A stretch of DNA of 63,961 nucleotides, filler included, from Collodictyon triciliatum (GCA_043381765.1; 3 parts of 3 records of this genome joined end to end with filler, not necessarily neighbours in it); one strand, 5' to 3'; shown: positions 53,327 to 56,300, counted from the whole stretch's first letter. Made by a program: numbers and translations. The notes: generated from the sequence alone by a model not told the origin.

Positions 53327-56300
53327 ATGTCGGGTCGTTCTTTCCAGGAGAAGCCTAGTAAAGAAAGCCGCAAGTTTGACGAGTCTTCTCGCCGCAAGTA
53401 ACACCTTTTTTCTTTTGGTCGCATTCCTTGACAAGATATTCACTTCAATGTGACTCACACGCGTTTCACCAGCTCCTTTATATACCACGAAAAGAATTCT
53501 TATTGCTTCGTTATTTTCCTGATTAAAATAAGCTCAAATCCGTCTTCTGTTTTTTTTCTTCTTTTTTTCAAAGAACCCCGCTCGCGCAACAAAGTCAGTT
53601 TTTCTCAGAGACTACAAACACGAAGCTACCTTCGTCTGCCGGGGCCAAACTGAATTTCGCTACGCTCGGCTCCAAACTGCAGGACGTCATCTGGAACGAG
53701 ACCACGCTAGTTCCTTTTGAAAAGAACTTTTACATCGAACATCCTCATGTTCGTCCATTAGATATGATTTTACAAAGAGCTTCCCCAATAATTTTCTCCT
53801 TTTTACTCCCTATCCTTTCTTTTTGTAAAACATGAGATTGACCGCATATATCTTTATATTTTGGTGAGAATTTTCACAACTTACTACGTATTAGTTAATG
53901 AGAGGCCTTTTTCAAAACTTTTTCTTAGGTGGTTGCGATGAGCAATGAGGATTTGATTAAATTTAGAAATGAGCTAGAAATTACAGTAGAGGGGCTTAAT
54001 GTTCCTAAACCTGTGCGCACTTTTGAGGAGGCATCATTTCCAGGTTTCATATTATACTGTAAATAGAGTTTCGTCACTTTCCTTTTTTATTAATTTTTTT
54101 TTTATTGCTATCTCCTTTGCGGTGATTCTGTAAATATATTACATCAATATGTTTAAATGGGTTGATTTTACCTTTCTAAAATTAAAAATAAAAGAATAAT
54201 CTTCTTTTATTGATAAAAAAAACTCTTTGAGTTCAAATAAATTTACAACGATTTATTTTCTCCTTAGAATATGTCATGCAGGAAATCAAGACTCTAGGAT
54301 TCGAAAGACCTACACCAATTCAATGCCAGGTCAACCAATCACCATATATTTAGCGATTAATTACGTGTTTTTTCTTTTTATGTTTATGAGCGCAAATTCA
54401 TCTTCATAAAGATTCATTTCACGCCAAATTAAAGAATACCATTTTTCTTAACATGCTATTATATTATTGTTTATGAATCTAAAACCAAATATTCTAGTCT
54501 TGGCCGATTGCTTTGTCAGGAAGAGACTTGCTGGGTTTGGCAGAGACAGGCACAGGAAAAACATTAGCTTTTGTTCTCCCTGCTATCGTCCATATCAACG
54601 CTCAGCCCATGTTGAATCAGGGTATAATCTCTAAAAATAAACAAAACAAAAAAAAACTTATTGGGACAAAAAATTTAGTCAAAATTTAACAGCTTTTTTC
54701 ACAAGATTTATTTTAAAAACAAACAAACCGAAACAATATCAAAGCAAAAATGAATATTAAACAAACTTCAGCGACAAAACCACATGACCATTTTGTTTTT
54801 AATTAAATACAAGGGGATGGGCCAATTGTGCTGATACTCAGCCCAACAAGAGAGCTCGCTCTCCAAACGGAGGCAGTTTGCGCAAAATTTGGTCACAGTT
54901 CCCATATTAAGCATACCTGCATATATGGCGGGGTCAATAAAGGAACCCAAGTTAAAGACCTCCAAAAAGGTATTTCATATTGATTTATCTACCTGTTGGA
55001 CAATCTGCTAAATGCGTCTATTGTTTGTCATTCTCATCTCTAAAATGAATTGAAATACTCAACCACGTCTTAATTTTTTTTAAATTAAAGGGGTGGAAAT
55101 TATTATAGCAACGCCTGGGCGTTTGATAGGTGTATATTGCCATTACTTTTTATATATTCATATGTGAATCATTGGTACATCTGATGGCAACAGGAATTAG
55201 TTTGGATATACCCATATCATCTAGGACGCTGAAAAAGCAGCAGCAAAATTGTACACTAATAATGATTATATCATTTTTTCCTCCCTTCCTTAATCTTAAT
55301 TTCCCTGCAGACATGCTTGAATCGAGGAGAACAAATTTGAAGAGGGTTACGTATCTCGTGCTCGATGAGGCCGATAGAATGCTTGATATGGGATTCCAGG
55401 AGCCACTTCGAAAAATACTGGGGTATATTTACTACTCTTTAAGCATCACAAGGTTGATTATTAAAACCCGGATAAGTGGAACTGAGACCATTTGTCAATG
55501 GCTGAAAACATAACTACTTGAAAAAAAATATCAGTCAAGTGAGACCCGATCGCCAGACTCTTATGTTCTCAGCTACTTGGCCAACTGAAGTGCAACAACT
55601 GGCACAGGAATTATCCATCAATAGGATACAGGTTTCATAGCCATGCTCATCATATTTTCCTTCTATCAAATTGACAAGCAATTTTGGGTTATTATCATAT
55701 TTCATGATTCGGGTATGTGGATGTCTCATTTTATTTGCTCATGATTTTTATTTCTTTCGCTTCCTTATGTTTAGGATTGTTACTTTATTTTTGCCGTTTT
55801 AGGTTAGAGTCGGCGCCAACAGAGTTCAGGCCAGCCGCATGGTTTCTCAATACGTGGATTGTTGCGAGGAGAAAGAAAAGAAACCAAAGTAACTTATTAT
55901 GTTTGACACAAAACACTTTGAATCGAATAAAGGAAAAAAAATGTTTGACACAAAACAATTCCCAACACCATTCCTCTTCTACAATTTCCCCCCAAATTTT
56001 ATCGTAATGTAGCACCTAATTCAAATATACCACACATTTTCAAGCTTTTCCCTCATAGCGAGCATTCACTCATCAAAATATTCTATCCACATCAGACTCA
56101 CAAAGATATTGGAGCAAATTATGGACGGAAGCAATATACTCATTTTTGTAAACACGCGAAAGTACAACAACCCAAGTTTTTTATCTCTATAGCAATTCTT
56201 TCCCCCTCTACAAAAATTTCCCGCAAAAATTAATCGTTTTTATGCTATAAACGGAAGAAGTCATACTTAGCATATGATATGTAATACATACAAAGCCTTC

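Follow-up and report, generated by a model that had tools for sequence, protein, structure and literature searches.

How can a retrotransposon leave behind copies that are only about 25 bp long and that all begin at nearly the same base? L1-type elements are well known to undergo severe 5' truncation, and a stretch of Collodictyon triciliatum DNA (GCA_043381765.1; 63,961 nucleotides, three parts of three records joined end to end with filler, hereafter the window) poses the question in a sharp form. At positions 55899-55957, the 17-mer ATGTTTGACACAAAACA (55899-55915) is followed by CTTTGAATCGAATAAAGG plus seven A (55916-55940), and then by the same 17-mer again (55941-55957). An earlier note, made from the sequence alone, had read this site and three others as micro-retroinsertions of the tail of a LINE (here termed micro-copies), arising either as a fixed abortive product of target-primed reverse transcription (TPRT) or as a promoterless micro-SINE. 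We confirm the original observation of such micro-retroinsertions and find that it extends further than first noticed: a micro-copy derived from a second LINE family, and a CTGCAC box shared by the two families, are new findings beyond that first description.

Tail-only LINE copies are flanked by target-site duplications

Exact copies of the 14-mer TTTGAATCGAATAA lie at 29468, 30802, 32919 and 55917, all on the + strand, and a copy with two mismatches lies at 21991. Allowing up to two mismatches, six matches were found in the whole window compared to a shuffle mean of 1.75, and only 1 of 100 shuffles reached six; one of these matches, at 44054(-) with two mismatches, has no A-tail and was taken as chance. 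A longer 17-mer allowed five mismatches gave a high background (29 matches versus a shuffle mean of 23.5), above which rise just six matches with three or fewer mismatches, namely the five TTTGAATCGAATAA-type sites and 37073-37089(-). Motif-based searches of this kind are blind to copies that retain less than ~12-14 nt of the tail. For the match at 37064-37089, a copy flanked by a TTGGTCAG duplication and twin priming in head-to-head arrangement were both considered and then rejected, as alignment showed it to be nested in a LINE fragment of a third family. The features discussed here are collected in Table 1.

Table 1. LINE fragments, tail-only micro-copies and flanking duplications in the window
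Feature	Position	Strand	Evidence and remarks
Left target-site duplication, 17 bp	55899..55915	+	100% match to 55941-55957; 0/300 shuffles reach the score; youngest family-A micro-copy
Family-A micro-copy: 18 nt of LINE tail + 7 A	55916..55940	+	Motif match, alignment; also recovered by motif-blind duplication scans
Right target-site duplication	55941..55957	+	Direct reading and shuffle test
Family-A micro-copy (30801-25), tail AAGGG + 7 A, with duplications 30783-30802 / 30825-30844 (17-19 bp, 2 mismatches)	30783..30844	+	Motif-blind scan; 0/300 shuffles
Family-A micro-copy, tail AAACGGG + 6 A, no detectable duplication	29467..29492	+	Motif match; duplication p ~0.53
Old family-A micro-copy (21990-22007, 2 mismatches) within decayed duplications of ~31-39 bp	21951..22038	+	18-nt core: score reached by 0/300 shuffles
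Family-A-like micro-copy, diverged (3 of 17 positions mismatched), with an A-rich tail; lies inside LINE fragment C and has no clear duplication	37064..37087	-	Insert bounded on both sides when fragment C is aligned with LINE A; duplication p ~0.07
LINE family A, 5'-truncated copy: end of ORF2 with zinc knuckle, ~100 nt 3'UTR, tail 32918-32935, A7	32322..32942	+	Pfam zf-RVT; tblastn
Family-B micro-copy (33490-33526): GCAC + 21 tail nt with AATAA at their end, followed by a further 12 A; perfect 14-bp duplications 33527-33540 / 33476-33489	33476..33540	-	Motif-blind scans; 0/300 shuffles
LINE-like family B, 5'-truncated, ~138 bp, tail ending GAATAA + A6; duplications 35814-35827 / 35970-35983 (1 mismatch)	35828..35965	+	Duplication p ~0.01; other copies continue upstream at 35829
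LINE C, related third family, 5'-truncated, different tail, no CTGCAC box, A11	37027..37181	+	Alignment to LINE A

Flanking duplications were scored against 300 shuffles per site. For the micro-copies at 55916, 30801 and 21990, and for the family-B micro-copy at 33490, the observed score was reached by 0/300 shuffles each; significant duplications are thus present at four of the six micro-copies in the window, and A-tails at all six. The same flank test detected no duplication at 29467 (p ~0.53) and a marginal one at 37064 (p ~0.07). The individual duplications described in the earlier note hold up well: the perfect 17 bp at 55916 are two identical 17-mers, the 18 bp with two mismatches given for 30801 are 17-19 bp with two mismatches (ACT being common to duplication and element), and the decayed duplication of ~35 bp at 21990 is real and contains an indel, with the A-tail running into the A-rich start of the duplication. 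A further motif copy, placed by the note at 29466, is an exact TTTGAATCGAATAA at 29468 within a copy that starts at 29467. The note's proposed check, the scoring of duplications, therefore came out positive within the window at 55916, 30801 and 21990 (0/300) and negative at 29467.

Additional marks of TPRT are found at these sites. The A-tails run from A7 to A14 and the duplications measure 14-19 bp, with one of ~35 bp, a combination of poly(A) with target-site duplications of variable length; the nick sites at the insertions are of the T/A or N/A type. Three of the four copies that have a clear duplication show microhomology at their 5' junction, in agreement with the ~80% of 5'-truncated human L1 copies for which such microhomology is reported (PMC2912911). 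Among the metagenome contig matches listed for the stretch 28150-43300, none bridged the micro-copy site at 29467, 30801 or 33490 to show an empty (pre-insertion) allele. The A-tails, duplications and nick sites support the identification of the micro-copies as retro-insertions made by TPRT from the tail of an L1-like LINE.

The parent LINE families

The motif had been recognized in the earlier note as the 3' end of a zinc-finger-bearing LINE fragment (32918-32942), and this assignment was borne out by a zf-RVT match (PF13966) at 32156-32413 that identifies the C-terminal CCHC zinc knuckle of ORF2, although its score is below the Pfam cut-off (E 3.5e-5; 24.8 bits versus 27.5), and by a metagenome contig (L001) carrying a second copy of this LINE, which finishes with the same tail followed by A10. 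Both copies end in ...C(T)GCA/ACA-CTTTGAATCGAATAAAG(C/G)-A(n). Because L001 carries the same tail, the motif is the true 3' end of the LINE itself. The family-A fragment in the window is ~620 bp long, with a CTGCAC box at 32913-32918 (its GCAC at 32915-32918) and an ORF stop near 32842, which gives a 3'UTR of ~100 nt, of which the micro-copies represent the final fifth.

An exhaustive HMMER search with the L001 ORF returned 14 relatives, while a word-indexed protein search found no longer relatives of the LINE ORF. The four full-length relatives (1226-1275 aa) carry Exo_endo_phos (4/4), RVT_1 (4/4) and zf-RVT (3/4); one relative (P0002) scores 36.4 bits for zf-RVT, and another (P0009) matches human L1 ORF2p with an E-value of 3.4e-57. 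When 17 relatives were used as tblastn queries, seven matched the window, all at 32315-32836, which is the sole coding fragment of this kind. The reverse transcriptase (RT) and endonuclease domains are seen only in the relatives, at ~30% identity, as the window copy and L001 are both 5'-truncated and contain neither. By these comparisons, the parent of the family-A micro-copies is predicted to be an L1-like (APE-type) LINE.

Family B is represented by a truncated copy whose tail lies at 35936-35965 and whose CTGCAC box occupies 35934-35939 (GCAC at 35936-35939). The insert of the family-B micro-copy is 37 nt long, and its 25 non-poly(A) letters recur at 35936-35959 with one difference. No other good match to the tail of LINE C exists in the window; as this boxless family is represented just once, any contrast between families with a box and micro-copies and one with neither has a sample size of one.

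One of the micro-insertions sits at the start of a leucine-rich-repeat protein ORF (33441-34256). The relatives of a kinase at 34503-35657 do not exceed 38% identity, and Sel1 kinase look-alikes in the atlas are most frequent in Mucoromycota or Parabasalia, an observation to be taken as a lead only.

Copies in freshwater metagenomes

Two freshwater metagenomes, which contain 0.05-0.06 of the sampled words, were searched, and their contigs were aligned to 28150-43300 at 80% likeness. Near-identical single-copy contigs are present (X2 records 14-16, for instance, show 0-3 differences in 151), indicating that the same organism or a close strain occurs in these metagenomes at low depth. Contigs of LINE A and LINE B are numerous, those on the 3' end of LINE A climbing at variant positions from 1 near 32353 to 16 near 32858, and one further family-A copy continues upstream at 32322. 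The varied flanks that follow 32942 show family A to be multi-copy.

One X2 contig (depth 2.5) carries the 18 nt of 35940-35957 on either side of 21 letters that, on the other strand, read as an A-like tail plus A5. This insert is a seventh micro-copy, with an 18-bp duplication, placed inside a B tail at a different locus. A scan of the metagenomes for the tail itself gave two loci, L001, which is a real LINE copy, and L002, which was rejected as a LINE tail on finding that the match lies in bacterial-looking coding sequence. Five loci matching the tail in prokaryote genomes, all in Flavobacteriia, were also set aside as unrelated: four share flanks with one another and none shares flanks with the window. 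Viral contigs scanned for the tail gave 0 matches.

Micro-copies of two families start at a common box

In both families A and B, a CTGCAC lies 21-25 nt ahead of the poly(A), while the tails are otherwise different. At just three places in the window does a CTGCAC precede an A-run of at least six at a distance of 12-26 nt, and two of these places are the A and B tails. Alignment and reading show that every micro-copy in the window starts within or just past this box. With the C of CTTTG numbered +1, family-A likeness to the LINE begins at CAC (55916, 29467) or at AC (30801, 21990), ahead of TTTG, a spread of ~2 nt. The claim that the four short copies start within ~2 nt of one another is thus upheld by alignment, with an ambiguity of 1-3 nt in each start because the same bases also end the duplication. 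The family-B micro-copy opens with the G of GCAC, a G for which the duplication does not account, and the copies at 37064 and on the X2 contig begin ~3 nt further in than the usual start. Candidates consisting of the box plus an A-run, or of CAC...AATAA, at 52689-52726, 54094-54130 (minus strand) and 9838-9883 showed no TPRT-type duplication on reading and were discarded.

Micro-copies make up six of the nine LINE-derived insertions in the window, and the sample behind the fixed start is very small, consisting of these six copies in 64 kb plus one on a contig of depth 2.5. These findings support the conclusion that the 5' ends of the micro-copies are unscattered within the window and that two LINE families share the same start.

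What fixes the start of the micro-copies?

The reading we favor, to which we give about even chances, is that the ~25-bp units are dead-on-arrival TPRT products that end at a sequence-defined point, with the RT stalling at the box. The A-tails, the 14-19 bp duplications and the nick sites show that the LINE endonuclease nicks the target and that the poly(A) tail anneals there; the new DNA ends in or adjoining the conserved CTGCAC box in two LINE families whose tails otherwise differ. The box, or a factor bound there, may be a strong RT stop, for example a putative hold site of the C-terminal RNA-binding part at initiation. If this anchor were not released, synthesis would end after ~20 nt, and microhomology of 0-3 nt could then serve to join the short cDNA to the upstream end of the target, as in an ordinary 5'-truncated L1. 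The resulting micro-copies, comprising the last 18-24 nt plus poly(A) of the LINE RNA, would be unable to propagate themselves and would be by-products of LINE activity. A more specific and tentative proposal, which we regard as possible but rather doubtful, is that the CTGCAC box is a putative anchoring site of the RT on its own RNA and that the micro-copies are footprints of unreleased initiation complexes.

Counting against a stall, no RNA structure that might halt the RT is predicted. The CTTT...AAAG hairpin that the earlier note had placed at the boundaries has no predicted stability, as the 25-mer folds at 0 kcal/mol and 200/200 shuffles fold equally well or better; its arms are changed in 30801, 29467 and 21990, that is, in three of the four short copies, and are missing from family B. 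Fold z-scores for the last 63-143 nt range from +0.6 to -1.3, the 3'UTR folds lying at -0.7 to -1.3, and the family-A tail does not have the stable conserved 3' stem-loop of stringent-type LINEs. Of the earlier abortive-TPRT reading, retro-insertion by TPRT from the LINE tail and unscattered 5' ends within the window are therefore retained, while the link to a hairpin is dropped.

The main rival, possible though in our view unlikely, places the fixed point in the template: the LINE RNA would be cut at or next to the CTGCAC box, and its polyadenylated 3' piece, held by the LINE protein, would be copied fully. Host or element nucleases, small-RNA-guided slicing and a second cleavage at tandem poly(A) sites are the agents proposed. 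A cut template would explain the sharp start as well as an RT stall does, and it would also explain why no stalling structure is predicted; that CA is the usual cleavage dinucleotide in 3'-end processing counts in its favor as well. Against it, an Rfam search of 32300-36100 that included ribozymes returned no ribozyme or RNA family at E up to 1, the family-B micro-copy opens with the G of GCAC and so is at odds with cleavage after CA, and the six nucleotides of the box, which are all that A and B have in common, are too little for one guide RNA.

We consider it improbable that a poorly processive RT stops with smooth scatter and that small numbers, together with a motif search, create the impression of a common start; were the pattern a small-sample effect only, the finding would be one of ordinary severe 5' truncation. 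Most LINE copies are severely 5'-truncated in many genomes (PMC2912911), and shorter copies would be invisible to the motif search, with starts ambiguous by 1-3 nt in any case. However, there are no family-A copies in the window that retain between 21 and ~620 nt of the LINE, and family B stops at the same box. Motif-blind scans, in which an A-run is followed by flank sequence recurring just upstream, recovered three short inserts in one scan (55916, 30801 and 33490-33526) and two in the other, all of which begin at the box. No inserts with a body of 3-15 nt or of 25-150 nt were found in these scans of the window, which have little power given that decoy controls gave 0-2 matches. By rough estimate, an exponential fall-off predicts several-fold more of the shortest bodies, with smooth stopping yielding an excess of at least 4.5:1 of 3-15 nt over 16-24 nt inserts, and the chance of three box-class events with none shorter would be ~0.006 or less, a rough figure from very few events.

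A terminal repeat, in which the 5' ~20 nt of the LINE RNA equal its 3' end so that the cDNA jumps to the 5' repeat, or a full copy collapses like a solo LTR, is in our estimation quite improbable. It would yield an exact, family-specific 5' end, and the CA-C start may resemble an initiator-type transcription start. However, there is no LINE 5' end in the window (tblastn gave one 3' fragment), so that nothing supports a 5' repeat, and terminal direct repeats are not a known feature of L1-type elements.

Finally, a self-transcribed micro-SINE, as the earlier note had suggested in promoterless form, is unlikely, and an independent RNA gene of ~20 nt using the LINE machinery through a shared tail is highly so: the units do share the LINE tail, as SINEs do, and exist in several copies, but their 18-24 nt ahead of the A-tail are too short for an internal polymerase III promoter and have no small-RNA head, none of the copies contains a part that Rfam likens to tRNA, 5S or 7SL (the only hit in the whole window at the gathering threshold being a tRNA at 52796-52868), no upstream flank of a parent is transduced between copies, and no diagnostic substitution separates micro-copies from LINE tails.

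Relation to known retroelements and implications

The micro-copies resemble 5'-truncated L1 (PMC2912911) in having ORF2 relatives with APE, RT and zinc knuckle, poly(A), target-site duplications of 14-19 bp and a 5' junction with 0-3 nt of microhomology. Truncation points of human L1 are broad, one study reporting a median length of 712 bp for de novo inserts (PMC11702581), whereas most copies here keep just 18-24 nt and start at one box. Suffix of Drosophila, as described in two reports (PMC1868783; PMC3136478), is an actively transcribed, SINE-sized retroelement, short and dispersed, that matches the 3' end of the F element identically, covers its last conserved RT domain and occurs as separate copies. 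The micro-copies share with this pair the dispersal of a LINE 3' end as separate short copies; unlike suffix, they are non-coding and probably not self-transcribed. Suffix is also about ten times longer. Where a SINE has its 3' tail in common with a partner LINE, and in stringent LINEs with their 3' stem-loop, the mobilized unit is the 3' part of the LINE beside the tail; unlike these, the micro-copies have neither a promoter-bearing head nor a stable conserved stem-loop. Platy-1, described as the shortest primate SINE at ~100 bp (PMC4864456), is similarly a very short retroposon moved by L1-type machinery, but it is four times longer and a SINE family, while the units here look like abortive by-products. 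Literature searches turned up no account of LINE copies that consist of the tail alone and start at a fixed point; these were narrow word searches that missed subscription journals, and they are correspondingly weak evidence that the pattern is unpublished.

If the anchor reading is true, the micro-copies would form a very large class of ~25-bp retro-insertions, invisible to repeat finders and outnumbering longer LINE copies; they would map the distance from the RNA-binding site of the RT to its active site, and would scatter AATAAA signals and A-tracts, which are microsatellite seeds, through genes and spacers. A sequence-defined stop ~20 nt into first-strand synthesis that is common to two families would offer a natural view of how TPRT passes from initiation to elongation, a step studied so far mainly on human L1 and R2, by structural work and in vitro assays. 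A considerable fraction of retrotransposition events could then leave insertions too short for standard annotation, and LINE activity and the mutational load that it imposes would be underestimated.

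Coding and tRNA genes in the window

Two kinases and a leucine-rich-repeat frame are listed in the table below; the very start of the leucine-rich-repeat frame is the site of a family-B micro-copy, one of the roughly 25-bp A-tailed retrocopies of LINE tails. Since the closest database relatives of the kinase that follows this frame reach at most 38% identity, Collodictyon triciliatum seems, from these protein comparisons, to be poorly represented in databases. About 70 nt upstream of the tRNA-Lys gene lies a string, CTGCAC...A6 (52689-52726), that was considered as a retrocopy, and no sign of a retrocopy origin was found for it.

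Positions of genes, open frames and example A-rich repeats
Feature	Position	Strand	Remarks
Leucine-rich-repeat open frame	33441-34256		followed by kinase frame
Kinase open frame	34503-35657
Kinase	60313-63798	-	1161 aa; Sel1 repeat at C-terminus
tRNA-Lys (CTT)	52796-52868		single gene
CMI2B-like open frame	26064-28091		Pfam match, E 3.7e-18
A-rich repeat sites (examples)	74-172, 8908-9008, 14803-15052, 43813-44018, 59117-59225

Base composition, repeats and masked sequence

Across approximately 3.7 kb (24400-28100), G+C content rises to 65%, versus about 39% elsewhere, with a strong skew of A over T and long open frames in all six reading frames. One of these matches CMI2B-like, a ciliary inner-microtubule protein. 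An N run (25841-25940) falls inside this stretch; others occur at 30183-30408, 44906-45005 and 6866 (403 N bases in the window in total), and one sits between two micro-copies. These runs are masked or unassembled sequence, 25841-25940 and 44906-45005 being filler joins between records.

A-rich microsatellites and long, impure A-tracts are unusually abundant at many sites, and Tandem Repeats Finder, run on the whole window, returned 25 rows with a score of at least 100. Such tracts may have a connection with retrocopies whose poly(A) tails have decayed. In the freshwater metagenome run X1, two short stretches stood out for their high summed contig depth, 31103-31138 (23.9) and 42824-43300 (133.5); both probably consist of low-complexity sequence or of other repeats.

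The tail motif in bacterial genes

Matches to the 21-nt tail motif were also found within coding sequence conserved in Flavobacteriia, at one metagenome locus (L002:3491-3512) and five prokaryote-genome loci (L003-L007). Its presence there is a coincidence; such matches would contaminate any census of the motif on metagenomes.
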